From Verrucomicrobiia bacterium (GTDB lineage Bacteria; Verrucomicrobiota; Verrucomicrobiia; Limisphaerales; UBA11358), in assembly GCA_030038175.1 (NCBI GenBank), contig JASHPN010000208.1:1-53447 (forward strand): DNA of 53,447 nucleotides. Direction: 5' to 3'. The notes beneath the pieces are model-generated. The model saw only the letters and a list, made by a program, of their open reading frames with translations. It made no database searches and had not been told where the DNA came from. The translations under genes and the position numbers were made by a program. Shown one piece after another: positions 29,710 to 53,071 of this stretch; positions within the stretch are counted from its first letter, which is position 1; each line of letters opens with the position of its first letter.

Positions 29710-29738
29710 TATATGTGCGCCGGCTGAAAAACCTGACA
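29710..29738 (-). promoter_or_regulatory. Conserved promoter motif of extended ECF genes, copy 1
   Basis: TGTCAGGTTTTTCAGCCGGCGCACATATA, 8 nt before ATG. Confidence 0.65.
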
Positions 29739-30123
29739 ATGTATTTTTGGCGTGGTGCGTGTGGCGTGGTGCGCCAAGTATCCGGGATGAATCACGAAAT
29801 ACACAGCGCGGACAGCTTTGTCCGCCAAAAATGACGCAAGCAGGGAACACGCGGACAAAGCTGTCCGCGCTCCTCGGAGTTGGCCGCAGGACGACACACA
29901 TTTCATTTGTGTATAGGCCGTGAACGGAGTAAACGAACGACCCGACAGCATCGAAAAGCATGATTTTATTTGGTTTTTGAACGTTTTTTTACCAGGTGCG
30001 GGTGTGAACGAAGAGGAGAGGCGCAGGCAAAGGGAATGGCTGATGGAAGGTTGAAGAGGGTCAGAGCGACTGGCCGCCGGGCGTGCTGCGACTCGCTTTC
30101 AGCAGAGTCGCGCTAGTCCGTCC

Positions 30124-30282
30124 GGAGCGCGGCTGCCCGCCCTTCCGTAGCCCCGCTCGGCGGGGCGAAGGAGGGTGTGCGATAGCACCAGCCAGGCATA
30201 TTTTAGATGAGCGAAAAACCTTGCGGCGATCTCGTTTTTCCGTGCTGCGACTGGTCCCGCAGACGGGACACAGTCGCGCTCC
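30124..30282. repeat. REP-like element family B
   Basis: Mosaic of the 26433 and 22672 copies. Confidence 0.75.
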
Positions 30283-30288
30283 GGGCGC

Positions 30289-31746
30289 CTACGGCGTGAA
30301 ATCAGAGGGTGAATATGTGTGATTGATGACAATGTTTTCGTGGGTTTGCACGGACTTGACGTCGCCGGATACTGTGTGCGGGGCATTCCGCAGTTCTGGA
30401 TTCTTTTTTGCTTCCGCGTCGAGCATGGCATTCAACGCTTTCGCCGTTGTGTCATTTTCGATTTGACGGACCAAAAAATCCCGCTTGCCAATCCATATGG
30501 TTTGGGTGCGTCCGCCGCCGGATTGGGTCAGGACGTAACAATCAATGCCGCCCACGGCAGCATCCGGTTCTCGGCTGGGCGAATGCATATTAATGTTACC
30601 CCAATTCTGTTTGAAGAAAGTCCCGGGAATGCTGCCTGCGGCGCCGCCGGAAATCCCAGTTGCGCCACCTAATGAGCCTTCCATGTTCGGCTCCCGCTCC
30701 GGACTGGATTCGGAAGTCATTTTCAAAAAATTTCCGCTGCCGGCCGACCAAACCATTCCCGTTTGGACAAAGAATCCATAGTCTTGCTGCCATTCAATGC
30801 GGTAAAGATTCGGGCGCGCTAATTTGGTGGAATAAGTAATCGGCGGCACGGTTTTAGTCCCGACTGTGCCGGTTGATGTGCCCGTGTCGCTGTAGCTGGT
30901 CAGCGCAGCGTAGGCGTTGTGCAATCGCTGGAGAATTTGCCGCGCGGTGAGGCCGTCATCGTCGTTCCCTTTCGAAACGGCGACCGTTGCCACGCCCGCC
31001 GCGAGGATGATGCCGGCCGTGACGCCGAGTGCGAATTTGAGCTTTAACCAGGTCATTGTTTTCATAGTTCCTTTTACGATCGTTATTATGGTTGTGGACG
31101 CGGCAGCCCCTTTCGCCACTGCCACGGTTGAAATCGTCTTTGCCAGTCCCGCGGGCGCGGCCTGGACTGAATTGGCCGAAATGGCGCCGGCGATAATTGC
31201 AGTCGTCGAAGCCACGCCGCGTTTTGAGAAAAATTTCCGGAGCTTTTCCAGCGCCCGGCCCACGCGTTTTTTTGCCGCTTCTTCGTTCAGCCGCATCACC
31301 TGCCCAATTTCCTGCGACGTTTTGTTCTCGAAATAGCGCAGAGCAATCACGTTGCGATCGGCGTCGCCAAGCGAGGCCATGGCTTCGTCCAGCAATGGGG
31401 CGAGTTCATCCCAGGCTTCGGGCGAAGATTCATTGAGTTGCATGGCTGCCTCCTGTTCGCGCCGGGACCGGCGCATCCCGGCGCGGATTTGCGCGTTGGC
31501 CGCGTAGCGCGTCGCTTTCAGCAGCCAGCCGGACAGGATGGTGTCCGCGGACAGTCTGGCCGCCTTGCGGGCGAGGATGATAAAAACCGCCTGTGTCACA
31601 TCCTGCGCCAGATGCGGGTCACGCAATTGGCGCAGTGCCGCGGAATAAACGAGGCCGACATACCGTTCCACCAGCGCCGCAAAGGCGGTCTCCGACTGCT
31701 GCTGCGCATATTCGCGCAATAATGTGATGTCCTGCATTTCTGACAT
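30289..31746 (-). CDS. ECF sigma-70 factor with TM helix and LolA/DUF2092-like C-terminal domain
   Basis: Sigma core paralogous to 28262..29701; [20 protein letters not shown]; C-terminal LTSYSDTG...[12 protein letters not shown]...[12 protein letters not shown]. Confidence 0.88.
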
Positions 31747-31753
31747 TCACCCA

Positions 31754-31782
31754 TAAACGCCCGCCGAAGGCAAAACGGGACA
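31754..31782 (-). promoter_or_regulatory. Conserved promoter motif of extended ECF genes, copy 2
   Basis: TGTCCCGTTTTGCCTTCGGCGGGCGTTTA, 7 nt before ATG. Confidence 0.65.
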
Positions 31783-31881
31783 AACTTTTTTATTTCAACC
31801 AAAAATGAACAACAAGGGCGCGAAGACGCGAAGCGGGCTTAAACCGCGGATTGACACAGATGAACACGGATTCTTCGCCAA

Positions 31882-32411
31882 GGAGCGCGGAAAGCTTTGT
31901 CCGCGAGAACGCTGCGAGATCCCAACTGGCGGACTCGGCGGTCCGCGCTCCGAAACGTTGTGCAATTGCGGCGTTCTGCCGAGACGCCGCTACGGGAAGG
32001 CCCGCACACACATTTGTTGTGCGTGGGTTTGGCAACGAGGAAACGAAGCTGGAATGGGTTAAATCGTGAATGGTTGATTGCTTGAAAGCGGCGGCATTTT
32101 CCGCTTCAATCCCAGTGTGGGCAAGGGAATATGAGAATGCTTGAACCTATACTGGCTGCGCGCCCAATACCGATTCCGACCTGGATCGATGCTTTGATTT
32201 ATTCCGGGGGTGTCGTGGTGTTTGTTCTAATCCTGGCGTGGTGGCTTAATCGAGGAGACAATGATTGAATGCGGACGTGATGCGGCGCCGGCGGAGGGCG
32301 GAAGCTTTGTCGGCGAAAACGTTGCGAGATCCCTGACTGGCGGACTCGGCGGTCCGCGCTCCGGGTGCTTGCGCAACCGTGGCGCTCTGCCGAGACGCCG
32401 CTACGGGAAGG
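31882..32411. repeat. Two direct copies of REP family C (about 31882-32001 and 32293-32411)
   Basis: GCTTTGTCCGCG...GGCGGACTCGGCGGTCCGCGCTCC...GCCGAGACGCCGCTACGGGAAGG; third copy about 35226-35378, partial about 29805-29875. Confidence 0.75.
32131..32268 (+). CDS. Small single-TM protein (45 aa, below ORF-track cutoff)
   Basis: AAGGGA RBS; MRMLEPILAARPIPIPTWIDALIYSGGVVVFVLILAWWLNRGDND. Confidence 0.5.
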   Translation: MRMLEPILAARPIPIPTWIDALIYSGGVVVFVLILAWWLNRGDND

Positions 32412-32635
32412 GCTGGATACACATTTTTTTTGTGCTTAGGCGGTGCTCGGAGGAAACGAATTATAAGTCATTGATTACAAGTATGTTAGCTATGATTTGA
32501 AATTTCCGATTCGTTGCCCATGGGTTGGGGCAGGTTCTGGGAGAGGTTTGACCTCCAAATCGGGCGCGCATCGGCCAGTCGTATGTTGGCGTTTAGGAGT
32601 ATGAGAGTGACTGGTGACGCGGGTAAAAAGGCGGA

Positions 32636-33335
32636 AGATGTCGCCCCGATGGGGCTCTGGGTTTTTTGGATTTTTTACTACAGAGATGCCAGCCCTACGG
32701 GCTTCGCTGTACCGTATTGACCGAGCGCCGCAGGCGCGGCATATATGTGGAAAACCAGACAAGATAGAACAAAAGCCCCCGTCAGGGGCGGCATATTCTG
32801 ATTTCAGTTACAAAAATGAGAGGCGCCCGCCAGCAACTTTGGCCATTGCCGGCTCCGACGATTTGGAGCATTTTCCACCGTCCCTTCAGACGGAGAGAAT
32901 TTTGGGGCAGCACCAGACACTTCGTGTCTGGCTACTTTCCGTGGTCGCTCCGCGACAGAGGTTCTGATTTTTATTTTGAAGAAACGAACGGCCAATTGTA
33001 TTTTAACGAACAGGCAGTGTGACGCACTGTGCGCCATTACAACAGCTTGCAAAGCAGAATATGCCGCTCCTACGGAGCTAGTGATTCTCAATCGGCCGAT
33101 TCTACAAATATGCCACGCCTACGGCGTTTGCTCTTGCCATTGACCGTCCTGCCCGGCGCCTGCAGGCCCCGTTCAGGGGCGGAATATTTGTAGAAAGCCG
33201 GAGGAGACGGGTGAAAAGCCCGCGTCAGGGGCGGCATCGTGGAGGATTTTCCGCCGTCCCTTCAGGACGGAGAGGAGTTGGGGGCGCCACCAGACACTTC
33301 ATATCTGGCTACTTTCCGTGGTCGCTCTGCGACGG
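32636..33335. repeat. REP cluster: family A (about 32636-32790, 33055-33205) and family F (about 32832-32955, 33243-33335)
   Basis: Family A matches 2860-3050 and 6130-6268; family F (CCGTCCCTTCAG...CACCAGACAC...GTCTGGCTAC..TCCGTGGTCGC) recurs at about 35829-35954. Confidence 0.75.
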
Positions 33336-33636
33336 GGTTGGGCAGATCCACGAATCGTTCTTGATTTCGGCGGGGAGACCGCGCTGCGATGTCCCCGCCC
33401 GTAAAGCGGGCGGTAAGAACGCAGTTGATCGAACGTGCGTTCGGCAAACGATTGCGCCGCTCCGCGCAACGCGCCGTCCCTACCACGAACAATGCGTGGC
33501 CGCTCTGGGACATCGTACAAACAATAGGCTGTTGAACAATTGCTTGAAAATCCGCGCGATGGGAAGGAAAATAGAGGATACGATCAGCGAAACTCAATTT
33601 GACGCCGTGAACACCAGGCCAGAGGGGAAATCCGGG

Positions 33637-35148
33637 ATGAGAACCAAATTAGATTGCGCAACCGCGCGGCCGGCCTGGGCTGGGGTGAACTTGAAGTATG
33701 CCTTTTTCAGACCAGGCGGCTGGCGCCGCATTGGTTTGCTGATGCCGCTGCTTCTGGTGGCCGGCGTCCTGGCCGGCGCCGGGTTGGCTGCCACGGCCGG
33801 CGCCCAATCTCTTAGCTGGAACGAGTCGGATATCAATGAAATGTGGAACGGGTACGTCAGCGATTTCTATAGCGAGGATGGAGCGGGTTATTACGTTTTT
33901 AATCCCCAGGCGGGTGATGCCACAATTACCGGTTTCTGGGAAGAGGCGGAGGAGATCGAAATGGCCGAGGACGGCTATGACTGGGCGGTCCGGGAGAACA
34001 ATAGCTTCGGCAATACCAACGATATTGCGAGCATGATCAACGAACTCTGCGCCGGGTTTGTCGCTCACAATGGGTCTTTTTGGTATGCGGATCACTACGA
34101 CGACGATAAAAATTGGGCGGAAATCGCCTTCGCGCGGGCTTACCAGATTACGGGGAACAGCAGTTGGCTCAGCGCGGCGACCAATAACTTCAATTATGTA
34201 TGGAAATATGGGCAGGTGAATGGAAAAACCGACGGCAGTTGGGGCCTCACCCAAATAACGAATACGGAGCGCATGTATGCCAACGTCAATTTCACGTTCG
34301 TGATTGCCGGCTATCTTCTGTATGACATCACCGGAAACAGCACTTATAAATCGGAGGCCGACGCCATCTATGCCTGGGCGAAGGCGAATTTATACGTCTA
34401 TAACCATCTGCCGGCCCAAAACGGGTCGAGCAATGTGTGCAGCATGATCTACAACTACAACAACACGGAGTTTGGCGGTTCGATCCAAAACCGGGACTGC
34501 ATGTACAACTACGGAATTGCGATTCGGGCGGCCTGGTACGAAAATGACACCAACCTGGCTTGCACCGTCGCAAATTGGATGATCTACAACGTGGATGCCG
34601 ATCCCAACGGGGACGGGGTTCCCTACGCCGGAACCTATGACGGCTACAACGTCCTCCCGGATTACGGAGCGGGAGGCAACAACAGCGACAATGACTGCGG
34701 CTACGACGGCATCGGGCTTCGCGGGTTTGGGCTGGCGCTCAGGGAGGGCGTGCTGACCAACCCGGACGCATTGCCGTTTGCGCAAGCGAATCTGCAATCC
34801 GCCTGGAATAACCGCGGCTCGGATAACGTGGAGTGGTGCGGCTGGACGACGTCGCCCTCGGGGACCAAATATTCCTGGGGCGATAGCTCGGCGATGGCCG
34901 GCATGTTCGATATTTCGGCGCCGAGTCAGCCCGGCAATCCGCCGCAATTGGCGATCACATGGAGTCCGCCCAACCTGGTCCTTTCGTGGTCATCGTTTTC
35001 GACGGATTTTTCCATCGAGACCAATTCAAATTTGAATACGACCGATTGGGTTTCGGTCGGTTCTCCTATTTATATAAGCGAGGGCACCAACCAAAGCGCC
35101 ACGATTCCGGCGCCCGCGGGGAACTTGTTCTTTCGGTTGGCGCAATAG
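33637..35148 (+). CDS. GH76-family glycoside hydrolase (alpha-1,6-mannanase-like) with a short C-terminal FFRL-ending domain
   Basis: Signal peptide; YDDDKNWAEIAFARAYQITG with the GH76 DD pair; start uncertain (33559/33637/33741). Confidence 0.8.
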   Translation: MRTKLDCATARPAWAGVNLKYAFFRPGGWRRIGLLMPLLLVAGVLAGAGLAATAGAQSLSWNESDINEMWNGYVSDFYSEDGAGYYVFNPQAGDATITGFWEEAEEIEMAEDGYDWAVRENNSFGNTNDIASMINELCAGFVAHNGSFWYADHYDDDKNWAEIAFARAYQITGNSSWLSAATNNFNYVWKYGQVNGKTDGSWGLTQITNTERMYANVNFTFVIAGYLLYDITGNSTYKSEADAIYAWAKANLYVYNHLPAQNGSSNVCSMIYNYNNTEFGGSIQNRDCMYNYGIAIRAAWYENDTNLACTVANWMIYNVDADPNGDGVPYAGTYDGYNVLPDYGAGGNNSDNDCGYDGIGLRGFGLALREGVLTNPDALPFAQANLQSAWNNRGSDNVEWCGWTTSPSGTKYSWGDSSAMAGMFDISAPSQPGNPPQLAITWSPPNLVLSWSSFSTDFSIETNSNLNTTDWVSVGSPIYISEGTNQSATIPAPAGNLFFRLAQ

Positions 35149-35433
35149 AATTTGCTACGGCGCGGCAGGAGATTGAGGGTGGAGGCGGAAACATCGAACG
35201 CCGAACGTCGGATTGCCGGGCCCATGGAGCGCGGACAGCTTTGTCCGCGAGAATATGCGAAGTTTTTCCGAAGACATTCGCTTTCTGTCTTCCCGATCCC
35301 AACTCGCGGACTCGGCGGTCCGCGCTCCGAGACCTTGCGCAATGGCGGCGCTCTACCGAGACGCCGCTACGGGAAGGCATGCAATAACATAGGTATGTTG
35401 ACTTAAAAGGTGTTCCGTGCTATTTGGACGTTT

Positions 35434-35754
35434 ATGAAGAAGCTCAAGTTTATCGCGGGTGCATTATTGGCGATAGCTGTGGTTTCGATTTCAGCGGGAT
35501 GCAACAAGGGCGCCAATTCGGTCAATTCGGTAAATTCCACCAATTCGACAAGCGCGGCACCGCCCAAACCGGATTTGCTGACGACGTGCCCGGTTACCGG
35601 CGACGCGCTCGGAAGCATGGGAGCGCCTTACGTTATTGTTTACCAGGGGCAGGAGGTCAAATTTTGCTGCGCGAGCTGCACCAATGACTTTTTCAAGGAC
35701 CCGGAAAAATACATGAAGATAATCCGGGCCGCAGACAAAACGGCCAGGGAATAG
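35434..35754 (+). CDS. YHS/TRASH-domain lipoprotein (metal-binding)
   Basis: Lipobox-like SAGC; CPVTG...YQGQEVKFCCASCTNDFFKDPEKY. Confidence 0.85.
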   Translation: MKKLKFIAGALLAIAVVSISAGCNKGANSVNSVNSTNSTSAAPPKPDLLTTCPVTGDALGSMGAPYVIVYQGQEVKFCCASCTNDFFKDPEKYMKIIRAADKTARE

Positions 35755-35964
35755 GGGCAAATACCTTCTCACGCAAAGGACGCAAAGGACGCAAAGGACG
35801 GAAGCGACAGCGATATTGTGTGCCGCCGGCAACTTTGGCCATTACCGGCTCCGACGATTTGGAGCATTTTCCACCGTCCCTTCAGGACGGGGAGGAATTT
35901 GGGGCATCACCAGACACTGCGTGTCTGGCTACTGTCCGTGGTCGCTTCGCGACCGAGGCGCGCG

Positions 35965-36066
35965 CTAATGCGGATGCGGATGGCCGCGAACGATCATGAG
36001 CACGATCAGTAAAATAATGATGATGAACCAGGCGATCCAGGTGAAGATTTTAACACCACGATTCAT
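35965..36066 (-). CDS. 33-aa membrane peptide ending HPHPH (below ORF-track cutoff)
   Basis: MNRGVKIFTWIAWFIIIILLIVLMIVRGHPHPH; purine-rich leader (GAGCGAAGAAACA) before ATG. Confidence 0.55.
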   Translation of the reverse strand: MNRGVKIFTWIAWFIIIILLIVLMIVRGHPHPH

Positions 36067-36156
36067 TGTTTCTTCGCTCTCTTTGCTTTTTGCTTTTGAT
36101 GTCAGAAGGAAATCGGTAATTTTCTGGCAGGTAAAGCGAAAAGATTTCTATGCAGA

Positions 36157-36396
36157 GGGCGCATCTCAGTTTTTGTGAGGCAGAATATGCCGCCCCTCCG
36201 GGGCTTGAGATTCCTATTGATTTTACTACAAAGATGCCACGCCTACGGCGTTTCCAATCCGCTACCGGACGCCGATACCATGTCGGTTGCTGAACCCCGT
36301 AGGGGTGGTATCTCTGTAGAAAATGACACAAAAACCCGAAAACCCCGTAGGGGTGACATCGTCGGTTGCGGTATTAACAAAAACTGAGATGCGCCC
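36157..36396. mobile_element. 240-bp MITE
   Basis: Perfect 20-bp TIR GGGCGCATCTCAGTTTTTGT / ACAAAAACTGAGATGCGCCC; 9-bp direct repeat CTATGCAGA at 36148-36156 and 36397-36405; interior made of REP hairpins. Confidence 0.88.
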
Positions 36397-36522
36397 CTAT
36401 GCAGATACCTCGGCATTATCTCCTTGCCAAACTCACAGAAACCCTTGAAATGGGGCTGTTTCTTGAATGGAGCGGTTGCTTTGGACGCCCACCGCGCATT
36501 CCGTGGGGTAGAAAGAGAATCC

Positions 36523-36720
36523 GTGTCTAAAAAGAAAAAGCAAAAGAAGAAACAGGATGTAAAGATGCCGAACCTGAGCGGCGGTGAATCCGAGGATGCT
36601 ATTATGGCATTGCTGCAAACGCCAGCGGGAAAAGAGCAACTCAAGAAAGCCGGGAAACTCATTGAAGAGTCGCTGGGTAAAGCCATTGCCGAAGCCAAAG
36701 CACGTTTCCAAAAACCATGA
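36523..36720 (+). CDS. Small Lys-rich hypothetical protein (IS-associated cassette)
   Basis: GTG start after AGAAAGAG; paralog of 37610..37759 (PNLSG..ED.I.A...TP). Confidence 0.6.
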   Translation: MSKKKKQKKKQDVKMPNLSGGESEDAIMALLQTPAGKEQLKKAGKLIEESLGKAIAEAKARFQKP

Positions 36721-36902
36721 GCAAAACGACTGGCAAAGTCGGCAGGCCCGCGCTACCGAAAAAGGAAAAGCGTTGGAAGTTCATTTCTACGCGCATCTCG
36801 CGGGATGAATACCGCGAGATCTTCAAAACAGCAAAAGAATCGGGCATGACAAAGACGAAGTGGGTAAGAACAAAGCTCGTTGCCGCCGCTCGCCGGGCCT
36901 GA
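36717..36902 (+). CDS. Ribbon-helix-helix (MobC/CopG-like) DNA-binding protein
   Basis: GRPALPK, then RISRDEYREIFKTAKESGMTKTKWVR; ATGA coupling; paralog at 37198..37395. Confidence 0.7.
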   Translation: MSKTTGKVGRPALPKKEKRWKFISTRISRDEYREIFKTAKESGMTKTKWVRTKLVAAARRA

Positions 36903-36942
36903 AAAACGGCGTGATTAGATTCAATTGGCCGCATTTCAGAGT

Positions 36943-37070
36943 CGCGCGAGCGCGCGGCTCGCGAGGCGGGAAATTAGCGCCTGGATATTTGGGGCTTGGT
37001 GACCCAGGGCGGCGCGCTCGCGGACTCGCGCTCTGCCCTGGGCTATAATATTGCACCCTTACAGGGTTTT
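36943..37070. repeat. REP family D (CCCAGGGCGGCGCGCTCGCGGACTCGCGCTCTGCCCTGGG)
   Basis: Related copies at about 39647-39750, 39920-40075, 42770-42895, 44660-44780, 51055-51175. Confidence 0.8.
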
Positions 37071-37197
37071 AAGGAGAGCCTCACCGACTCGGCTGGTCCT
37101 GCTTGACCTTTTTAATTTAGTCCCGCGCTCCTTCGGGATTATGTCTTTCACAGACCCAACTGCGGGCATGGTTTGGAGCTTGATTTTGCATGGTATT

Positions 37198-37395
37198 TTA
37201 AGCGCGACGGGCAGCAGCCAGAAGCTTGGTTCTAATCCATTTGCCGCGCATCATTCCTGATGCTTTGGCTGCTTGGTCTATCTCCCTAAACTCATCCTGT
37301 GAAATGCGAGCGGTCATGAACTTCCATTTCTTTTCCCTTTTTGGAAGCGCGGGGCGTCCAACTTTTCCAGCGGATTCGTTTGTAGTTTTCATCAA
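37198..37395 (-). CDS. Ribbon-helix-helix (MobC/CopG-like) protein, paralog of 36717..36902
   Basis: GKVGRPALPKREKKWKF...RTKLLAAARRA. Confidence 0.7.
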   Translation of the reverse strand: MMKTTNESAGKVGRPALPKREKKWKFMTARISQDEFREIDQAAKASGMMRGKWIRTKLLAAARRA

Positions 37396-37613
37396 GACGG
37401 AAGGCAGCTTTCAGCCTCTATCACGGCTTCATCGATCATTTTCTTGAGATATTCTGCCTGCTCTTTCAACTCGCCGATGGTTCTGCATTCGGTTGAAAGC
37501 AAAATTAAACCACCTTCGTCAGGTTGATAAGTTCCACAGGCAATATAACCCTTTGGGGTGTTGAAAATGTTCTTCGGCTGACCTCCCTTAAATTTAAAAA
37601 ATATGCCTTTCAT
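37392..37613 (-). CDS. Hypothetical protein (73 aa)
   Basis: 4-bp overlaps with both neighbours, suggesting translational coupling. Confidence 0.6.
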   Translation of the reverse strand: MKGIFFKFKGGQPKNIFNTPKGYIACGTYQPDEGGLILLSTECRTIGELKEQAEYLKKMIDEAVIEAESCLPS

Positions 37614-37759: not shown

Positions 37760-37770
37760 GGATTCTCTTT

Positions 37771-44866: not shown

Positions 44867-45304
44867 CTACGCAGTTTCAATTTCCAGGCGGCGTTCGCTG
44901 GTTGGGCGGGGTTGGATGGGTTTGGCGGGTTCGGCGGGGGGCGGGTCGTTCGGCCCGATTAATTCGGTCAACATCTGTTCCTGCTGGTGAAAGGCCAAAA
45001 TCGTTTGCGGTAACGGCGGTGCCACGGCCAATTGCGGTTGCGAATGGTCGCGCATTGAGAAATTCGCGGCAAAAAGCAAAAGCCAAACCGCCGCCAGACT
45101 CGCCCAAACGCGGCGGGACGGCCAGATGAGTTCCAGCCACAGATTGCGTGAACGAGCAGGGAACGAAGAAACAAAGGCCGCAAAGAAACTTTGTTTCTTG
45201 GTTACTTCGTGGTTTAACTCGGCAATAATTTTGCGGCGGATGGCGTCGAGTTTTGGCGCAGCGGATTGGTGGCGGGCCAGTAACAGTTCACGCGGCGTTT
45301 TCAT
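44867..45304 (-). CDS. Putative single-TM anti-sigma factor
   Basis: Overlaps the 3' end of the ECF gene; one TM (WASLAAVWLLLFAANF); Pro-rich tail. Confidence 0.65.
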   Translation of the reverse strand: MKTPRELLLARHQSAAPKLDAIRRKIIAELNHEVTKKQSFFAAFVSSFPARSRNLWLELIWPSRRVWASLAAVWLLLFAANFSMRDHSQPQLAVAPPLPQTILAFHQQEQMLTELIGPNDPPPAEPAKPIQPRPTSERRLEIETA

Positions 45305-45857
45305 TTTTAGCCTCCCACAGTTTTCGCAATGATTTTTTGGCGTAGTGCAGACGGGATTTCACGGTGCCGATTTGCGTTTCGGTCACGCGCGCAATTTCGT
45401 CCAGTGAAAACTCCTCGATGAAATGGAGCAGCAGAACGGAACGCTGGGCCGGGGGCAATTGGGCGAGGAGACTCATAAATTCGGCCTCCTGTTCGCGACG
45501 GACGAGGACATCGCCGGGGTCATCCTGGGAATCATCGGGAGCGTCGGGGATTTCGTCGAGCAAGAGTTCCTTGCCGCCTTTTTTTCGGAAAGCCTGAAGG
45601 CATTTCTGGTGGGCGATGCCGAAGAGCCAGCTCCCGAATTTTTCATCCTCGCGCAGGCCGCCGATATGGCGGGCGGCGGCGATAAAGGTTTCCTGCACGA
45701 GATCGAGGCTCGTTTGCTCGTGGCGGACCAGTTCAAAAACATAGACGTAAAGCGGCAGTTGATAGCGGCCAATGAGCGTGTCCCAGGCCGCGGCATCGCC
45801 GGCGCGGGCCTGTGAGACGGGCAATTGTTCGCTTTCAGCCATGGCCGGCATTTTCAT
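45288..45857 (-). CDS. ECF sigma-70 factor (RpoE-like, no extension)
   Basis: DLVQETFIAA, FGSWLFGIAH, QRSVLLLHFIEEFSLDEIA...GTVKSRLHYAK. Confidence 0.93.
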   Translation of the reverse strand: MKMPAMAESEQLPVSQARAGDAAAWDTLIGRYQLPLYVYVFELVRHEQTSLDLVQETFIAAARHIGGLREDEKFGSWLFGIAHQKCLQAFRKKGGKELLLDEIPDAPDDSQDDPGDVLVRREQEAEFMSLLAQLPPAQRSVLLLHFIEEFSLDEIARVTETQIGTVKSRLHYAKKSLRKLWEAKNENAA

Positions 45858-45906
45858 AGAGAGGAATGCGCGAAGCGAGAAAAGGTTCAATGGGCGGGCG
45901 GGAATT

Positions 45907-45938
45907 TAGACAGGATGAACCTGCCTTCGCTCCCGCCG
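45907..45938 (+). repeat. 32-bp direct repeat, second copy at 47564..47595
   Basis: TAGACAGGATGAACCTGCCT(T/G)CGCTCCCGCCG, one mismatch. Confidence 0.8.
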
Positions 45939-46452
45939 TCGTTGCACTATGGCGCGGCAAGCAGAGCTACGGCACGGCAGGCAGGATTTACAGGATAATG
46001 ACGTTAAGTTAACGATCGTCCATTCCATTGTTCCTGGCCAAAGGCCTGAACCATCGTAGCCGAGGGCAACGCCCTCGGAGTGCGTCAATGAAAATATCTT
46101 GCCCTGCCGCCGTCGCGCCGAAGCGGCGCGATGGCGCGCCGCGAAGGCGGAAGGGGGCAACTCAAAATCCAGCGTTCCTACCAACGCCGTTTTGGAGCGC
46201 CCTTACAGGGCGCAGGGGCCAAACTGCGGTGGTTCCGAGGGCGTTGCCCTCGGCTACTATGGCTTTGCGTTTTCAGCGCGTTCCATTGGATTTCAAAGAC
46301 GCCCAATCCTGGCAATGAAAAGCCTGGACTTCGCAATGCCATATTCCGCCCGCGATACGGGCGGTGACGGCGCAGCGCGCCATCCCTACCATGTATTCTT
46401 GCTAAAGCTTTTGCCCTTTTACGTTTTTAACTTTAAAATTGGAGCTGTGAGA

Positions 46453-47514
46453 ATGAAAACCATCTGCGGGGCGATCACGGGGCTTTTAATATTTACCGTT
46501 CATCTTTCGATCGCCCTGGGCCAGGGCGCTACGGCGTTTACGTATCAGGGCAATCTCCAGAACAACGGCACAAACGTGACTGGCGCCACCGGGATGATTT
46601 TTGCGCTCTATGATTTCGGCCTCGGCGGCACGCCCATCACCCCCGCCATCACCAACGATGTCGCGGTGTCGAATGGCCTGTTTACGGTCACCCTCGATTT
46701 TGGCGCGGGCGCGTTCAACGGACAGGCGTGCTGGCTGGACATCGCCATATCGAACGGCGTGAGAAATGTGGAACTATCGCCGCGCACACAAGTGTTGCCC
46801 ACGCCTTATGCCACGTTTGCCAATACCGCGAGTAACATCGCGGCGGGGGCCGTTTCCACGGGGACATTTATCGGCGACGGCAGCGGCTTGTTGAATGTGG
46901 GCGCGAATCTTCAGATGCAGGTATTTCCCAATTACGGAACCTATACGTTCAATGTTCCGACCAATGTCAGCAGCGTGATTGTTGAGGCCTGGGGCGGCGG
47001 CGGAGGGGGCGGGGGCGGGTATGCGCTCTATGATCGGGGCGGCGGCGGCGGCGGAGCGGGCGGATACGCCAAAGGCGTGGTGACGGTAACGCCCGGCGCA
47101 AGCTACACGGTGGTCGTGGGGCAGGGAGGTCTTGCCGACTCGGAAGAAGCCGAGACGGGAGGGAGCAGCTCTTTTGGCAGCGCCATCACCGCGGGCGGCG
47201 GCACGCCCGGCCAATTTGGCTCCGGGACGAGCACGCTCACGACCGGGGGAGCCGGGGGCCAAGGGTCTGGCCAGGGCGGTTCGGGCACGATTTTGGCCAT
47301 CACCGGCGGGATCGGGCAGTTTGGAGTTTATGACGTCGGCGGCGGAAATGGCGGCAACGCTCCTGACGGCGGCGCGGGCGGGCTGGGCAATTTGGGCGCC
47401 GGCGGCACGGCCGGAACCGTACCCGGCGGAGGCGGAGGCGGAGGCGGATATTCCTCTTCCAGTTCAGATGCCGGCTATGACGGCGGAAGCGGCGAAGTGG
47501 TTGTGTATTATTGA
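46453..47514 (+). CDS. Secreted glycine-rich protein with N-terminal AFTYQG domain
   Basis: Signal peptide; TAFTYQGNL...NGLFTVTLDFG...WLDI domain; Gly-rich C-terminal domain (WGGGGGGG...VTPGASYTVVVGQGG...GEVVVYY). Confidence 0.85.
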   Translation: MKTICGAITGLLIFTVHLSIALGQGATAFTYQGNLQNNGTNVTGATGMIFALYDFGLGGTPITPAITNDVAVSNGLFTVTLDFGAGAFNGQACWLDIAISNGVRNVELSPRTQVLPTPYATFANTASNIAAGAVSTGTFIGDGSGLLNVGANLQMQVFPNYGTYTFNVPTNVSSVIVEAWGGGGGGGGGYALYDRGGGGGGAGGYAKGVVTVTPGASYTVVVGQGGLADSEEAETGGSSSFGSAITAGGGTPGQFGSGTSTLTTGGAGGQGSGQGGSGTILAITGGIGQFGVYDVGGGNGGNAPDGGAGGLGNLGAGGTAGTVPGGGGGGGGYSSSSSDAGYDGGSGEVVVYY

Positions 47515-47643
47515 AGCGCGGAGGGGTTTAGACCACGAAATACACGAACAGAACAGATGGAAATAGACAGGATGAACCTGCCTGCGCTCCCGCCGAACTT
47601 TAGCTTGAAACGCTTCGGGACGCCGGGTTTGGTGGTATCGAAC

Positions 47644-48795
47644 CTAGGGGATCCGCCGGAAGTTGGGATGGATTGTTGTGTCGGGATAATCGTAGATGCC
47701 GTTGATTCCCGGTTGAGATTCCTGAGGTATGTAGCGGCCGGGCGGGAGTTGAACGCCTTTGTGGTCGGTCAGGTCGAGAGATTTGATTTCTTCCGGCGAG
47801 AGGGCACGGTTAAAGACCGCGAGATTGTCAATTAACCCGTGAAAATAGGTATAATAACCGGGACAGGTGTCGCCGCCGATATTCAGCGGCTGGTCAGTGG
47901 ATAGATCACCCGGCTGCCGGGTGGGATCGAATGTCAAAATCAACTGGCCATCCACATACAGCTTGCCGCCGTCGGCCGCATTGCGAACCACCGTAACGGC
48001 GACCTGATGGAAGTTGCCGTCAAACAGGTTTGGGCCCGGTGCGTGCCATTCGTCGCCATTCTCATCTAAATTGTCAGACATCCTGAAGCTGAGCTGGCCA
48101 TGGTAAAGGCACAGGACAAAGCCAAGGCAGCGCGTGTTGTTGGGAGTGATCCGCTTGTCTGCGATGGGCAGGATGTCGTCGGTCATTTGCGGCGGCGGGG
48201 ACGCGGGTTCAATCCAGGCCTCGATTGAAAAATCCTGGCCGGGGCCAAAATTCAAATCCGGGCTGCCGGGGACCAAAATCTGATTCTCGCCTCCGTCAAA
48301 ATAGAAGCCCGGTCCGGTTTTGGCGTCGAGATAGCTTATTCCCGGCGAAACGGAGGCGTCGTGCGCGCCGGCGGCGTCTTTGCCGGAGCTGCTTCCCGAC
48401 CAGAGAGCGACGAGGCCGGGCAAATTCGATCCGGGAATCGCGCCGGCCACGGTGACTTTGCGGATGGAAGCCACCGGCAGGTCCGCTTTGCCAAAGCTGG
48501 TTTTGATCGCCATCTTGGAATCCTCAAAGGAAACGGCCAGGGCGTCGCCGGCGGTAGTGGTCACGGTCGCGGAATTGGCGGGCGAGCAATCCACCGACCG
48601 AATGTCCTGAATCGGCAGGGCAACTTCTCCCAAGAGCGCGGAATGGAACCGGAGCTTTTTATCCAGGCACTGGCCCACGATGCGGGAACCGTCGGATAAT
48701 TCAACCGTGACGCGGGGCGAAGATGGTTCAGCGGCGACGGCATAGCTGAGGCGGCACGCGAAAACCGCGACTGTCGAAAGATGAAGGAGCTTCAT
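47644..48795 (-). CDS. Secreted LamG/ConA-like jellyroll protein
   Basis: Signal peptide; FSIEAWI, FHQVAVT, LYVDGQL, FHGLIDNLAVFNRALSPEEI. Confidence 0.88.
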   Translation of the reverse strand: MKLLHLSTVAVFACRLSYAVAAEPSSPRVTVELSDGSRIVGQCLDKKLRFHSALLGEVALPIQDIRSVDCSPANSATVTTTAGDALAVSFEDSKMAIKTSFGKADLPVASIRKVTVAGAIPGSNLPGLVALWSGSSSGKDAAGAHDASVSPGISYLDAKTGPGFYFDGGENQILVPGSPDLNFGPGQDFSIEAWIEPASPPPQMTDDILPIADKRITPNNTRCLGFVLCLYHGQLSFRMSDNLDENGDEWHAPGPNLFDGNFHQVAVTVVRNAADGGKLYVDGQLILTFDPTRQPGDLSTDQPLNIGGDTCPGYYTYFHGLIDNLAVFNRALSPEEIKSLDLTDHKGVQLPPGRYIPQESQPGINGIYDYPDTTIHPNFRRIP

Positions 48796-49323
48796 AATTC
48801 AGGAATGGGCGTTGTGTTTTTTTGATTTTGGCGTCCTTTGGCATTCTTTCAAGTTCAATTTTCGATCGTCGAAAGCACGGATTAAGACAACGCGGTTGGA
48901 GGACGGAGCGCGGATGCGTGCGAGAGCCCCAGCCGCAGCACGTGGCCAGCCGGAGATATTGCGTATGGCGACGAATCATCGCGTTGCGGACGTGCGGCGA
49001 CGGCAGCAGCACGACGAAGCCTGAATGGCAGGAGTCCTGGCTCGTTTAATTCGATTACGAAGACGAGGACAATTAAGGTTTACCGGGGGCGTTCACCCTT
49101 TTAGCCAGAGCTTCCTGACGTCAGCTCCTACGCAATTAGGAACGCAAGCGTGGTGGCGAAGGTTCATAGTGCCGATGCAAGGTGGCTGGATGTTCGATGT
49201 TCAACAGGTTAAAAAGATTTTTTGCAAGATCCCGGAGTGGGCGCCGTAGGGGTCAATGAACGTGGAAAAACGCTTGTTTTTTCTTCACTGGGAAATAGGT
49301 TAAATAACGAAAAGGCGGATAAG

Positions 49324-50088
49324 ATGAAAAATAGCTCGAACAGAAACGGTTTTACGCTCATTGAATTGCTGGTGGTGATCGCGATTATTGCGATTTTGGC
49401 CGCGGTCCTCCTGCCGGTGCTGGACATGGCCAAACGAAAGGCCTGGGAGATCAGTTGTCTCGACAACCACAAGCAATTGGCCACGGCCTGGATCATGTAT
49501 AAAAACGATAACAACGGCAATTTGGCCATTGACGACCCCGTGACGGGGGCGACGCTGGCCGGAACGAATTATCCGAGCTGGGTCTATGGCAATATGCAGA
49601 CATCCGATGCAACGAACACCTCATTGATTCAAATGGGCCTGCTTTTTCCCGATGGCGCCAACGTTGGCATTTATCATTGTCCCGCTGACCAGGACACGGC
49701 CCATCACGACCGCAGTTACAGCATGCAACCGCAACTGGCCCTATATAATAACGGTGCGCCAGTCCCGGTGGACACCAGCTATCCACCCATGTACACGGAA
49801 AACCAAATCCGGATTGTCCCGCCGTGTTCAACCGTTCTTTTTTTGGATGAAAGTTCCGTGACCATCAATGACGGCTTTTTTGCCCTGGACATTACCTCCG
49901 GCCAATGGGAATCCGATCTTCCGGCCTATTGGCACGGGAATGGCGATAATTTATCGTTCGCCGACGGCCACGCGGAGCATTGGCGCTGGCTGGACCCACG
50001 GACGTCTTCGCCTAATCCAAATTCCGGCAGCGCGCCATATCCCGATCTGGCGCGGCTCGAAGCGGATTTCGGGTATCAATCGCCGTAA
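49324..50088 (+). CDS. Prepilin-type N-terminal cleavage/methylation protein with H-X9-DG domain
   Basis: [19 protein letters not shown]; [14 protein letters not shown]. Confidence 0.93.
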
Positions 50089-50089
50089 C

Positions 50090-50890
50090 TTATTGTTGCG
50101 GCCGCGGCGAGGGCGGGACCCAATTCACGTGCCAGGAGTATTGCCAGAGGTTCTCGAGTTTGGCCATTTCCACATGGCCATCGGCCAGACCCAGGTTGAC
50201 GGCGCCGGGCATTTTTTGGGTGGTATCAAAATCGCGCGGCGCGGACCCGGCAACGGCGGCATGTCGCGCAATCGTGCACCGTTCCATGCCCGTCGAATTG
50301 GGTTCGCCGTCAAAAAGATCGCTCGCGGGAGGGTCCGTTTCCAGCGGCCACATGTCCGGCCAAATGGCGTCGGCAAAGATCGGCGTGGTGGAAGGATAGC
50401 GAATGGCGGATTCGGTCTGGAAAAAATTGGTGAGGGTATCGTATCCGAAGCCGAATTGGGTATTCACCACGGTGGAATAGAGCCAGCCATTCAGGGCGTA
50501 GCTGCCGTTGGTCTGGATGGTGGCGGAGCTGAACCAGGACCACGCATTGACGGTGGTGCCGCTGACCGTGTCATCCGGCGACAATTCCGCCGGGGCGGGC
50601 GCCGTGGGACAAAGCATCGCCTTGCGCTGCCAGGACAAATTTCCCATCACGGACGGAAACCAGAGCGATTGGAGGGAGGGATAGCCAATCGACCCTTCCT
50701 GGCTCTCATACATATAGGCCGCCGTGGCCAGTTGTTTCACATTGTTCACGCATTGAATCTCCTGCGCCCGGCGCTTGGCCGCCGCAAAGACGGGCAACAA
50801 AATCGCGGCCAAAATGGCAATGACGGCAATGACCACGAGCAGCTCGATGAGCGTGAACGCGCGGGCGTGTTTTTTTAAGCCGGCAGCCAT
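50090..50890 (-). CDS. Prepilin-type N-terminal cleavage/methylation protein (H-X-DG variant)
   Basis: [19 protein letters not shown]; RH...[11 protein letters not shown]. Confidence 0.92.
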
Positions 50891-51221
50891 AAGGTTAAGT
50901 GAATATTGACCCGAAGTGCGAAAACGTCGAGTTGTTAATGTGATGATAGAATATGTGACGGAGCGCGGATGTGTGCGCAGCACCACGACAAGGCTGGAAT
51001 GGCAGGAATCCTTGCCCTCTTGCGATCCAGGTTGCAGCCGGACCGCATATCAGATGCGCGCTTCGCGCGGCTTCGCAATCAGCGGCTGGATTTTAGGTTT
51101 CGTTACCTGGGGCGGCGCGCTCCCGGAGTCGCGCTTTGCCCCAGGCTATTATCGGCCGCCCATTCAGGGCTTTCAGTCAGCGCCTGCGGCGTTTATCCGT
51201 GTCTATCTTTGGTTAAAATTT

Positions 51222-53033
51222 TCATTGTTCGATGAGTTCGGGCTTGGTCGGATTATCTATGATCTCGTATTTGAGCGAATCCAAATCGAGCCAGACTTTG
51301 CCGCTGCCATGGAAGGCGAAGCCGGTGTCGAGGCATTCGGTGTCTTTGGGAATCCGGCAGGTGATGGTTCGAAGCGTCCAATCGGTTGTTCCGGAAATGG
51401 GGCCGCCGCCAAGCATCTTATCCTGGGCGAGCAATTTGAAATTCGCTCCTTTTGGCCGAAGGTTGGGACGCAAACGGCCGTCCACATTTTCCGTTTTTGT
51501 CCACACGGTCATGCGCACCATGTGACCGGCGTATTTTTCCGGCGTGCGAATGTCCTGTCCCCACCACATCCATGAGCCGGGAGGCGCCTTTCCGAATAGC
51601 GTATATTCAATGCAAAACGCCGAATGGCCGTTGTGCGTGACGGTATCGTCGGTCGTTTCGGAATAATCGTAGGAATCGGGGCTCCATACGTGCCAGGGAC
51701 GATCATCGGTGATGGGTGTTTCGGGCGGAACAACGTCCACTTCAAAATCGTCGAACCAGACCTCGCCGGTGCCGTAAAGGGCGGGCGCAAAGACGATCGC
51801 GCAAGGTTCCTTTGGAACATCGGCGACAAATTCGATCTGCTGCCAATCGGTCGTGCCGCGAATGGGCCGGTCGGTCATGTCGTCGTCGGCAAAAATGTGC
51901 CCGCCTTTATTCACGATTTCCAGCGATGCGCCGGCCCAGGCGGCGACGTCTTTGGTTTTTATCCAGCCGCCGACCTGAACCCGCTTTCCCAGCAGCAAAG
52001 AATTTTTCGGGAGCCAATGAACCGTGTAACGCGACGCTGCAAGCAACCGGTTTTTGCCGGTCGTCGAAGCCAGATATTCAGCGTCGGTGGCCGGCGCGAT
52101 GAGCGATTTGATGTGGATGGCGGGATCGGAATCGGGCGTGCGGCGCATATTCGGGTCCGTATCCATTTCAAACCGGTCGTCGTCCACGCCGTTCCGGAAG
52201 GCGTCATTGGCGAATTTGAGGGGCAGCTTTTCCGGGGGAGGGAGAGGCGGCCCGGAGATTGACTTGAAAATGACAAAGCCGGCGCCGGCGCCAATAATGA
52301 CGGCTACGGCCGTCGCGATAATAATTTTAGTTTTCATGGTGATGAGAGTTGCTTTGGCGATGGTGGTGAGGGGAAGAGAAGCGGTTGCGCCTTTGGCCAG
52401 CGCAAGGGCGGCGGTCGTTTTGATGAGCGCGGCGGGCGCGGGTTGAATTGAATGAATTGAAATGGTTTCGGCAATGGCGGCGGTGGTTGAATCAGCCCCG
52501 CGCTGCAAGAAGATTTGCCGCAATTTTTCCAGCGCGCGATTCACCCGCATTCTGGCGCCGTCTTCATTTGCGCCCAGGGCCGCGCCGACCTGCTTGAAAT
52601 CTTTGCCTTCGAAAAATCGGAGCAGCACGGCATTTCGGTCTTTTTCGCCCAGGCGCAGCATCGCCGAGTCCAGCATCGGCGCGATTTGTTGCCAGGCTTG
52701 AGATTCGAGGGGTTCATTCAGGGTGGATTGCATGTAGGCCTCCTGTTCGCGGCGCTGGCGGCGGCGCTGCATTTTCAACACGTCGGCGCTCACGTATTGC
52801 GCCGTACGATAAAGCCAGCCGGTCAAAATGGTTTCCGCCCCGAGTAATTTTGCTTTACGCGCCAAAAGGATGAAGACCGATTGCGTGACTTCTTCGGCCA
52901 GGTGCGGGTCGCTCGTTTGGCGCAAGGCCACCGAATAAACGAGATGAATGTGCCGCGAAACCAGCGTTTCAAATGCTTTTTCCGACTGGCGGGCGGCGTA
53001 TTCGCGCACCAATTCCATGTCTTCGGCCATCAT
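51222..53033 (-). CDS. ECF sigma-70 factor with TM helix and two tandem CBM-like jellyroll domains
   Basis: Sigma core paralogous to the other two; TM IIIATAVAVIIGAGAGFVIF; two repeats of (I/T)KT..V...PI.GTTDW...P...G.G.VW.D. Confidence 0.88.
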   Translation of the reverse strand: MMAEDMELVREYAARQSEKAFETLVSRHIHLVYSVALRQTSDPHLAEEVTQSVFILLARKAKLLGAETILTGWLYRTAQYVSADVLKMQRRRQRREQEAYMQSTLNEPLESQAWQQIAPMLDSAMLRLGEKDRNAVLLRFFEGKDFKQVGAALGANEDGARMRVNRALEKLRQIFLQRGADSTTAAIAETISIHSIQPAPAALIKTTAALALAKGATASLPLTTIAKATLITMKTKIIIATAVAVIIGAGAGFVIFKSISGPPLPPPEKLPLKFANDAFRNGVDDDRFEMDTDPNMRRTPDSDPAIHIKSLIAPATDAEYLASTTGKNRLLAASRYTVHWLPKNSLLLGKRVQVGGWIKTKDVAAWAGASLEIVNKGGHIFADDDMTDRPIRGTTDWQQIEFVADVPKEPCAIVFAPALYGTGEVWFDDFEVDVVPPETPITDDRPWHVWSPDSYDYSETTDDTVTHNGHSAFCIEYTLFGKAPPGSWMWWGQDIRTPEKYAGHMVRMTVWTKTENVDGRLRPNLRPKGANFKLLAQDKMLGGGPISGTTDWTLRTITCRIPKDTECLDTGFAFHGSGKVWLDLDSLKYEIIDNPTKPELIEQ

Positions 53034-53042
53034 CTTTATCAA

Positions 53043-53071
53043 TACATGGACGCCGTCGCGAAAAGCGAACA
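53043..53071 (-). promoter_or_regulatory. Conserved promoter motif of extended ECF genes, copy 3
   Basis: TGTTCGCTTTTCGCGACGGCGTCCATGTA, 9 nt before ATG. Confidence 0.65.

Follow-up and report, generated by a model that had tools for sequence, protein, structure and literature searches.

Each of the three genes for extended ECF sigma factors in the window (the whole 53,447-nucleotide stretch of DNA that was analysed) is preceded by a copy of a 29-bp motif that, as read from its sequence, serves as the promoter in a large Verrucomicrobial family of sigma factors, each of them a single polypeptide anchored in the membrane. It appears likely that this is a group-specific ECF promoter, each copy of which would be read by the sigma domain encoded by the gene behind it, that it carries a paralog-specific address, that it gives rise to a leaderless mRNA and that, as a self-promoter, it refills the pool of its own sigma factor. 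The sigma factor genes of the window and the elements next to them, with the residues of the putative code (X1X2, residue 77 and residue 85), are:

28262–29701, minus strand: ECF1, ECF sigma factor of 479 amino acids that is extended at its C-terminus and has a TM helix near residue 242; X1X2 = Q162 Q163, residue 77 = Q, residue 85 = N
30289–31746, minus strand: ECF2, extended ECF sigma factor of 485 amino acids; X1X2 = KK, residue 77 = K, residue 85 = A
51222–53033, minus strand: ECF3, extended ECF sigma factor of 603 amino acids; X1X2 = RM, residue 77 = R, residue 85 = D
45288–45857 or 45890, minus strand: fourth ECF, for comparison, 200 amino acids without extension; ATGs at 45857 and 45851
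29808–29825 and 29851–29868: two copies of a dispersed hairpin, GCGGACA-N4-TGTCCGC, about 70–130 nt upstream of the ECF1 promoter

Sigma70_r2 and Sigma70_r4/r4_2 were found in ECF1, ECF2 and ECF3 (Pfam), and with sigma-2 and sigma-4 regions only and a core of about 170–200 amino acids these proteins belong to the ECF (group 4) sigma factors. TIGR02937 scores above its cut-off for the extended proteins and none of the NCBIfam subfamily models does, which places them at the superfamily level only. The PDB matches of their sigma domains are SigE, SigW, SigH, SigL and RpoE. A scan for hydrophobic segments locates the TM helix at about residue 240 in the C-terminal extension, and a Pfam search of the extended proteins gave no FecR-like (FecR at E ≤0.01) or zinc-finger anti-sigma domain and no SnoaL match.

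The three motif copies and the promoters built around them, in which the −35 element is numbered from the T of TGT, are:

29738–29710, minus strand: ECF1 motif copy, TGTCAGGTTTTTCAGCCGGCGCACATATA
31782–31754, minus strand: ECF2 motif copy, TGTCCCGTTTTGCCTTCGGCGGGCGTTTA
53071–53043, minus strand: ECF3 motif copy, TGTTCGCTTTTCGCGACGGCGTCCATGTA
29708–29750, minus strand: ECF1 promoter; A-tract 29748–29744; −35 TGTCAGG 29738–29732 (position 4 C 29735, position 6 G 29733); T-tract 29731–29727; CGGCG 29722–29718; −10 block GCGCACATATAAT 29720–29708 with CAT 29715–29713; 14 nt from the C of CAT to the ATG
31750–31794, minus strand: ECF2 promoter; A-tract; −35 TGTCCCG 31782–31776 (position 4 C 31779, position 6 C 31777); TTTT 31775–31772; CGGCG 31766–31762; −10 GGGCGTTTAT with CGT 31759–31757; 13 nt from the C to the ATG
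53040–53080, minus strand: ECF3 promoter; A-tract 53078–53072; −35 TGTTCGC 53071–53065 (position 4 T 53068, position 6 G 53066); TTTT 53064–53061; CGGCG 53055–53051; −10 GTCCATGTAT with CAT 53048–53046; 15 nt from the C to the ATG

Ungapped alignment of the three 29-nt stretches leaves 16 of 29 positions invariant, in exactly the pattern written down in the initial annotation, whereas random upstream triples from the same genome reach at most 11 (windows anchored 5–12 nt before the ATG, n = 3000) or 12 (free window placement, n = 300). The distance from the end of the motif to the start codon, given there as 7–9 nt, was measured as 8 nt (ATG 29701), 7 nt (ATG 31746) and 9 nt (ATG 53033); it should be noted that the mechanical ORF start of ECF3, ATG 53072, lies inside the motif and that ATG 53033 is the start aligned with the family. 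With a position weight matrix trained only on other genomes the promoters of ECF1, ECF2 and ECF3 score 38.6, 35.4 and 25.0, respectively. The gene for the fourth, non-extended ECF indeed lacks the motif, as had been claimed: there is no TGT...GGCG upstream of it. Found there instead are TGAACC (45889–45884), TTTT, N11 and CAT (45868–45866), the last 11 nt before ATG 45857, and by its sequence this element is a canonical AAC-type ECF-like −35.

The motif is not confined to the window. It is clear upstream of 17 of the 21 paralogs in this genome and present in a diverged form upstream of the other four, and it was found in nearly all of the 79 genome loci and 80 metagenome loci examined, with about 150 relatives carrying it in other Verrucomicrobiota MAGs and in metagenomes. 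The family consensus consists of an A-tract, TGTyCC, TTTT, about 8 nt and GCGGACATtTAT, followed by the ATG; bases invariant across the paralogs, which make up about half of the motif, are TGT, TTTT, GGCG and the A-T of CAT. When the 5.4-Mb genome was scanned with a matrix trained on other genomes only, 23 matches were obtained at a score of at least 20, the cut-off used, 12 of them at family genes, as compared to 0.7 expected from column-shuffled matrices. The family-specific promoter proposed in the initial annotation, for which enrichment upstream of other members had been named as the check, is strongly supported by this enrichment and by the presence of the motif in nearly all of approximately 160 relatives. 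An exact-pattern search of 31 related genomes returned 3 sites, the pattern being strict and covering one class only. In Verrucomicrobiota from peat and soil the family reaches up to 25 copies per genome. In the literature nothing specific on this sigma factor family and its promoter was found, and Verrucomicrobia are not mentioned in the main text of Casas-Pastor 2021.

Since paralogs are involved, with two of the genes arranged in tandem, the shared upstream sequence could in principle be functionless similarity left over from gene duplication. The probability of this is practically negligible: the sigma domains are merely 40–76% identical, the DNA farther upstream is unrelated, and in 152 of 165 genes, taken from many genomes, the placement of the motif deviates by 1 nt at most, the TGT being 36–38 nt upstream of the ATG. 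Such a leftover is already contradicted by this pattern of conservation.

The promoter would be composed of an A-rich upstream tract, a −35 element made up of TGT and positions 4, 5 and 6, a T-tract, a G+C-rich spacer and a −10 element (G)GnCAT, the CAT taking the place of the CGT usual for ECF sigma factors. In 149 of 157 genes CAT follows TGT at a distance of 23 or 24 nt; this −35 to −10 spacing is ECF-like and, counted from position 6 as the "C of AAC", is 1–2 nt longer than that of AAC-N16-CGT. From CAT to ATG there are 13 or 14 nt in 138 of the 157 genes, the ATG is at or beside the conserved position in 156, the three bases preceding it are T-R-R in 88, and an SD-like 4-mer occurs in only 4. 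Since the motif lies very close to the start codon, there would be almost no mRNA leader: transcription is predicted to start at the ATG or at most 2 nt before it, which would yield a leaderless mRNA without a Shine-Dalgarno site. The near-leaderless transcripts postulated in the initial annotation thus fit the geometry of the motif, and it is from geometry that this part of the proposal draws its support.

Leaderless mRNAs with the −10 element a fixed few nucleotides before the AUG are common in Actinobacteria and Deinococcus. The family would share with them the fixed −10 to AUG distance and the missing SD sequence, but differs in that the arrangement is tied to a promoter for an alternative sigma factor and to one gene family. 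Elsewhere in this genome, targets with the same type of promoter have ordinary leaders, which in the non-ECF targets are 20–300 nt long.

A promoter for the housekeeping sigma factor with a long spacer (TTGTCn-N18-20-TAnAAT), kept for constitutive leaderless expression, would have a TTG at −35 and an upstream A-tract resembling an UP element, as is observed, and in ECF1 there is TTGTCA together with a perfect TATAAT. However, the fourth base of the −35 element (TTGTCn) is T in 17 of 17 sites of the genome and never A or C, whereas the bipartite −35-like matches in front of tRNA genes, with a spacer of 16–19 nt, have TTGCC or TTGAC and never TTGTC. A sigma-70 scan (spacer 16–18) finds no site at ECF1 or ECF2, the two genes covered, and a housekeeping promoter leaves the covariation with the ECF's own residues, described below, unexplained. 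As the main explanation it is very unlikely and was rejected on the comparison with the tRNA promoters and on the sigma-70 scan. The −10 element of ECF1 does overlap the perfect TATAAT, so that the housekeeping sigma factor may also use this one promoter.

In the consensus, the −35 TGTCC reads as the reverse complement of the −10 GGACA, and the same arms recur in GCGGACA-N4-TGTCCGC, of which the genome contains 48 copies, including the two just upstream of ECF1. The motif could therefore be taken for the operator of a dimeric regulator or for a hairpin. Palindromy is restricted, however, to the TGTCCA/TGGACA class with its 11 members, and the commonest class, TGTTCC with CGGACA (31 members), is asymmetric, as are other classes; an operator or hairpin would explain neither why the distance to the ATG is fixed nor why the motif covaries with sigma residues, no Rfam family matched in the window, and compensatory changes between the TGTCC and GGACA arms, looked for across the family, were not seen. 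The palindrome or operator reading, which we regard as extremely unlikely, was rejected because most motif classes are asymmetric. The hairpins upstream of ECF1 do not belong to the promoter. One of these copies is terminator-like on the minus strand, and it probably insulates ECF1 from read-through from ECF2.

Which sigma factor reads which promoter was approached via covariation. In a mutual-information scan of 178 residues against the 14 positions of the −35 block the top two pairs were residue 163 with position 4 and residue 162 with position 6, and by BLASTP residues 163 and 162 align with S172 and R171 of RpoE from Escherichia coli. In phylogenetically independent pairs a position 4 other than C goes with X2 = M (13 same, 0 opposite; p 2e-4), G at position 6 with Q/R (11:0; p 1e-3), C at position 6 with K (10:1) and A at position 6 with H (5:0), whereas six control pairings all gave p >0.6. 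Pairs with no branch in common were drawn on the best tree and again on bootstrap trees, and the results were stable across 200 of the latter. At the −10 element N at residue 85, which is aligned to N84 of RpoE, goes with A before CAT (7:0; p 0.016). In a held-out set of 24 flanking paralogs 22 of 24 and 16 of 17 follow the rules. Two further correlations, of residue 77 (Q/H/R) with the base two before CAT (G/C/T) and of residue 87 with the base after CAT, are visible in the tables but failed the independent-pair test and are inseparable from phylogeny. It should be noted that covariation means that a gene has evolved together with the DNA upstream of it, which is not the same as binding.

The specificity code of RpoE, in which R171 is paired with −31, S172 with −34 and N84 with −12 and −13, is known from Todor et al. 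(2020, PMC7776599), who proved by mutagenesis that R171 and S172 are specificity determinants of sigma-4. The three covarying residues of the family align with just these residues, and that a sigma factor covaries with its own upstream motif is the principle of their method. There are also differences. The covarying −35 positions are 2 nt apart rather than 3 nt as are −31 and −34, so that one of the two −35 positions is out of register by one nucleotide, and the code varies from paralog to paralog of one family within single genomes. In the family the residue-to-base pairs are M with T, K with C, H with A and Q/R with G.

The initial annotation had proposed that the shared motif allows the paralogs to cross-activate one another. 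This is not borne out, because the variable bases of the −35 and −10 elements covary with the DNA-contact residues of the gene's own sigma factor. The codes in the window all differ, QQ/TGTCAGG in ECF1, KK/TGTCCCG in ECF2 and RM/TGTTCGC in ECF3, which leaves free cross-activation unsupported. Since the variable bases match the DNA-reading residues of the cognate protein, each gene probably activates itself and not its paralogs, i.e., each sigma factor probably recognises its own promoter, as read from the covariation. The sigma domain would thus exert positive autoregulation, the invariant bases would serve as the family scaffold, and the paralog-specific address would consist of positions 4 and 6 of the −35 element and the base before CAT, read by the residues aligned with S172, R171 and N84 of RpoE, respectively.

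A network or hierarchy with shared input, in which one or every family sigma factor reads all the promoters and one sensor raises all paralogs, would account for the invariance of about half of the motif and for the several paralogs per genome that have the same −35 class; five KK/TGTCCC paralogs in this genome, for example, form one such class, so that some cross-talk may occur. It would also accommodate five prepilin-like target genes of this genome, the promoters of which are of the TGTCAC or TGTCTC type and match no paralog that was found there. Against it stand the covariation of the variable bases with the sigma-4 and sigma-2 residues of the cognate protein in independent lineages, the distinctness of the four-residue codes (20 codes in the 20 parsed paralogs of this genome and 14 in the 16 genes of a second one) and the high sensitivity of those ECF sigma factors that were tested by mutagenesis to single-base or single-residue changes at these very positions (PMC7776599). 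Such a network is thus unlikely, and covariation and distinct codes together point to separate self-activating channels. Whether a target promoter follows the code of the adjoining ECF gave a mixed picture: the correspondence is clear for one paralog of this genome (C369), whose neighbour gene has the same −35 and −10 variant, and absent for KM-class genes in other MAGs.

Among the closest known systems is ECF41, the target promoter of which is TGTCACA-n16-CGTC (Wecke et al., 2012, PMC3426412). As in the family, the −35 element starts with TGTC, the −35 to −10 start-to-start distance is 23 nt, the group-specific motif lies upstream of the sigma factor's own operon, and the sigma factor, which lacks a separate anti-sigma factor, is extended at the C-terminus by a regulatory region. 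In contrast to ECF41, with its −10 CGTC, mapped leaders of 22–23 nt with an RBS and cytoplasmic SnoaL_2 domain, the family has CAT at −10, −35 positions 4–7 that vary by paralog, a predicted near-leaderless mRNA, an extension composed of a TM helix and a variable outer domain, and at least 20 copies per genome.

Sigma/anti-sigma hybrids released by proteolysis are IutY from Pseudomonas putida (ECF243) and SCO4117 from Streptomyces coelicolor (ECF52) (review PMC8999054). Like these, the family proteins are single polypeptides in which the ECF domain is accompanied by a TM segment and an outer domain, and cleavage is presumed to activate them, so that a self-promoter would be of use in replenishing the pool. 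Unlike IutY, in which a FecR-like anti-sigma and periplasmic domain is fused to a FecI-like sigma factor, they have no detected FecR-like or zinc-finger domain. The tethered sigma factor would presumably be consumed upon being freed, and the self-promoter would therefore refill and amplify the channel that has been activated. We know of no promoter motif common to this family and the ECF243 and ECF52 groups.

Group-specific ECF promoters, autoregulation, and R171, S172 and N84 as specificity determinants are already established. What is gained is that a very large, uncharacterised family of one-component membrane-tethered sigma factors receives a promoter, a predicted transcription start and a residue-to-base code. 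Regulons become predictable from the family promoter, the targets visible in this genome being prepilin-type/DUF1559-like proteins, a PATR-repeat protein and neighbouring genes, and cross-talk among many paralogous sigma factors in one cell becomes directly testable. Should the channels be orthogonal, the family would be a ready source of insulated sigma factor/promoter pairs. Somewhat short of an even chance is given to the farther-reaching proposal that one ECF family has given rise to at least 20 mutually insulated, self-amplifying channels per genome, each with a tethered sigma factor, its own sensor and a leaderless gene whose address, made up of two −35 bases and one or two −10 bases, is matched to 3–4 residues of its own product; if true, the family would represent a natural compact set of orthogonal sigma factors and promoters in which the ECF specificity code is put to the test in nature.

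Three extended ECF sigma genes of the window are each preceded by a 29-nt motif, in order TGTCAGGTTTTTCAGCCGGCGCACATATA, TGTCCCGTTTTGCCTTCGGCGGGCGTTTA and TGTTCGCTTTTCGCGACGGCGTCCATGTA, which ends 8, 7 and 9 nt, respectively, before the ATG:

ECF1: 28262-29701, minus strand, extended ECF of 479 aa
ECF2: 30289-31746, minus strand, extended ECF of 485 aa
ECF3: 51222-53033, minus strand, extended ECF of 603 aa

The mechanical ORF start of ECF3 (ATG 53072) lies inside the motif, and the family-aligned start is ATG 53033. The pattern given in the initial annotation is correct: 16 positions are invariant in the three 29-mers, which is above every random upstream triple from the same genome, whether anchored near the ATG (3000 triples, ≤11 invariant positions) or freely placed (300 triples, ≤12). 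That the three genes have the motif in common is not due to chance. A motif-like site, TTGTGTCATTTTCGATTTGACGGACCAAAAAA (30447-30478, plus strand), on the opposite strand inside ECF2, reached a score of 21 with the initial, self-trained matrix and stayed below the reporting cut-off of 16 with a matrix trained on other genomes; it is probably a chance match.

In the genome (5.39-Mb assembly, 431 contigs, 92% complete), tblastn found 21 paralogs of the sigma domains with 39–64% identity, plus remoter ECFs. All 21 encode long proteins (370–748 aa for the complete ones), each with a hydrophobic segment around residue 230–242. The plain motif is present upstream of 17 paralogs, 16 of which have TTGT at 37–39 nt before the ATG, and the most diverged four have recognisable variants. 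A two-block weight matrix, for which only sites from other genomes were used in training, gave 23 matches on both strands of the genome at a score ≥20, 12 of them at family genes, versus a mean of 0.7 for ten column-shuffled matrices, and 19 versus 0 at a score of 25. Given this enrichment, the family specificity proposed for the motif is clearly borne out. Ahead of one ECF paralog (contig C168, plus strand) there are tandem promoter copies at 5080 and 5118, 38 nt apart, the upstream one with a differing -35 (GGTTCGC) and -10 (GGACATATAA).

The same arrangement was found in nearly all relatives sampled, which came from genome assemblies (79 loci; Verrucomicrobiota, Limisphaerales and Pedosphaera MAGs, many peat-derived) and from metagenomes (80 loci). 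The consensus of 141 non-self sites is AAAATanTtTGTcCCcTTTTcc, ~5 nt, then GCGgACATtTAT. The spacing is 36–38 nt from TGT to ATG (152/165 genes), 23 or 24 nt from TGT to CAT (149/157) and 13 or 14 nt from CAT to ATG (138/157). Genomes of the same genus carry 0–25 family copies and those of other families of the order 0–11.

The layout, a -35 followed by a T-tract and a short -10 with conserved C-N-T, is that of ECF promoters. For example, the experimentally mapped ECF41 promoter TGTCACA-n16-CGTC has the same start-to-start -35/-10 distance of 23 nt (PMC3426412). The family is not ECF41, however, since the SnoaL_2 domain of ECF41 was not found in its proteins. The non-extended fourth ECF of the window (45288-45890, minus strand) has TGAACC-TTTT-N11-CAT at 45857-45890 (minus), 11 nt before ATG 45857 and 17 nt before ATG 45851, which by sequence is a canonical ECF promoter of the AAC type and shows this architecture in its classical form; by the distance to the ATG its leader is likewise very short or absent. 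A housekeeping-type promoter was rejected: bipartite -35-like matches upstream of tRNA genes in this genome are TTGCC, TTGAC or TTGCT and never TTGTC, a sigma-70 scan (spacer 16–18) gave no site at the ECF1 and ECF2 motifs, the two covered, and all family sites have T or C at position 4, never the A of TTGACA. Also rejected were a palindromic operator (symmetry in only one -35/-10 class), a structured RNA (no Rfam match) and a leftover of duplication, the motif being placed to within 1 nt despite 40–76% protein identity and unrelated DNA further upstream. A dispersed hairpin, GCGGACA-N4-TGTCCGC, occurs in 48 genome copies, in the window at 29808-29825, 29851-29868 and 35231-35248; its arms happen to coincide with the cores of the family's consensus -10 and -35, and the copy 29825..29808 (minus), which precedes the ECF1 -35 by ~70 nt, is terminator-like by score.

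Judged from the sequences, the base differences from paralog to paralog are not noise. The 165 genes were grouped by X1X2, the residue pair (Q162 and Q163 in ECF1) with which the sigma-4 recognition helix begins, E-x-A-A-X1-X2-R-V-x-R-A-L-E-K-L.

Sigma-4 residues X1X2 and -35 bases (X1X2; genes; -35)
KM; 56; TGTTCC, TGTTAC
RM; 19; TGTTCG
KK; 35; TGTCCC, TGGCAC
HK; 16; TGTCCA
QK; 27; TGTCTC, TGTCAG, TGTCTT
KT; 1; TGTAAC

An unbiased mutual-information scan compared every one of the 178 sigma-domain residues with each of 14 positions in the -35 block; the top two pairs were residue 163/position 4 (1.0 bit) and residue 162/position 6 (0.82 bit). Q162 and Q163 align with R171 and S172 of E. coli RpoE, and N85 with N84 (BLASTP). 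Saturation mutagenesis by Todor et al. showed that these positions set the -35/-10 specificity of ECFs, with the pairings R171/-31, S172/-34 and N84/-12,-13 (PMC7776599). Common ancestry was controlled for with an IQ-TREE phylogeny (160 sigma domains, recognition-helix columns omitted), on which branch-disjoint pairs with a differing promoter base were counted.

Branch-disjoint pairs (pairing; same; opposite; ties; sign p)
Position 4 not C with X2 = M; 13; 0; 2; 2.4e-4
Position 6 G with X1 = Q/R; 11; 0; 2; 1e-3
Position 6 C with X1 = K; 10; 1; 9; 0.012
Position 6 A with X1 = H; 5; 0; 2; 0.06

The opposite count never exceeded 1 in 200 bootstrap trees, and p was >0.6 for each of the six control pairings, which used neighbouring positions. 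Among 24 held-out flanking paralogs the rules held for 22/24 and 16/17, and mis-anchored starts accounted for the misses. In the -10, N at residue 85 pairs with A before CAT (7:0, p 0.016); the remaining -10 correlations were inseparable from phylogeny in the branch-disjoint pair test.

Positive autoregulation predicts that a gene's upstream bases covary with the DNA-contact residues of its own product, as seen here. Such covariation would be unexpected if the promoter were read by a common master sigma, a housekeeping sigma or a repressor, none of which predicts it. The three genes of the window have the following codes:

ECF1: X1X2 QQ, residue 77 Q, residue 85 N; -35 TGTCAGG; -10 GCACAT
ECF2: X1X2 KK, residue 77 K, residue 85 A; -35 TGTCCCG; -10 GGGCGT
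ECF3: X1X2 RM, residue 77 R, residue 85 D; -35 TGTTCGC; -10 GTCCAT

These all differ, as do the four-residue codes of all 20 paralogs parsed in this genome; in another genome, which is nearly closed, 14 codes were counted among 16 genes. This speaks against the network of cross-activating paralogs proposed initially. Because the codes are distinct and ECF sigmas are sensitive to single changes at these positions (PMC7776599), the shared motif is better read as a common scaffold with individual addresses than as a cross-activation device. Partial cross-talk is possible inside one -35 class, e.g., among the five KK/TGTCCC genes of the genome.

Another ~10 strong sites of the genome lie ahead of non-ECF genes, and similar neighbour types recur in other MAGs. 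Five precede genes for prepilin-type N-methylation/DUF1559-like proteins (C394, C397 at 9338, C187, C246 at 1746, and C193) and have a -35 TGTCAC or TGTCTC, a -10 GGACAy and leaders of 20–300 nt. For these, the residue code calls for an RK/Q-type paralog; one is present in other genomes, and none was found in this 92%-complete one. One site precedes a PATR-repeat protein gene. On C369 (minus, ~8439 and 5934), the gene for a 543-aa zinc-ribbon protein directly upstream of an ECF paralog agrees with it in -35 (GTCTG), -10 (GGCCGCACATATAG) and 38-nt ATG distance, and is likely a co-regulated, also leaderless partner. On C94 (~5781-6020, plus), a complete promoter of the family leads into a 12-codon ECF-start remnant (MQAMDDSALLQG, then stop), with a GH5 cellulase gene ~200 nt further on; this resembles a degenerate sigma gene, with the cellulase gene possibly now using its promoter.

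The sigma mRNAs themselves are predicted, by geometry alone, to be near-leaderless, as initially proposed. If CAT is equated with the CGT of an ECF -10 and, following the N84 pairing, its C is placed at -13 or -12, transcription is predicted to start at the A of the ATG or 1–2 nt before it. T-R-R (TGA, TAG or TAA) directly precedes the start codon in 88/157 family genes, and T-R-R-ATG would suit transcription starting 2 nt upstream at a pyrimidine(-1)/purine(+1) step. Only 4/157 genes have an SD-like 4-mer, and the ATG is at or beside the conserved position in 156/157. Since leaders are 20–300 nt long in the non-ECF genes with this promoter type, the tight promoter-ATG coupling appears to be specific to the sigma genes and to one further gene, the C369 neighbour.

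Group-specific ECF promoters, autoregulation and the R171/S172/N84 code are already established; no account of this family's promoter was found in the literature searched (the ECF Hub was outside its scope). Two features of the family are notable: the predicted fixed leaderless geometry of its sigma genes, and an address code that is diversified among at least 20 paralogs inside single genomes.
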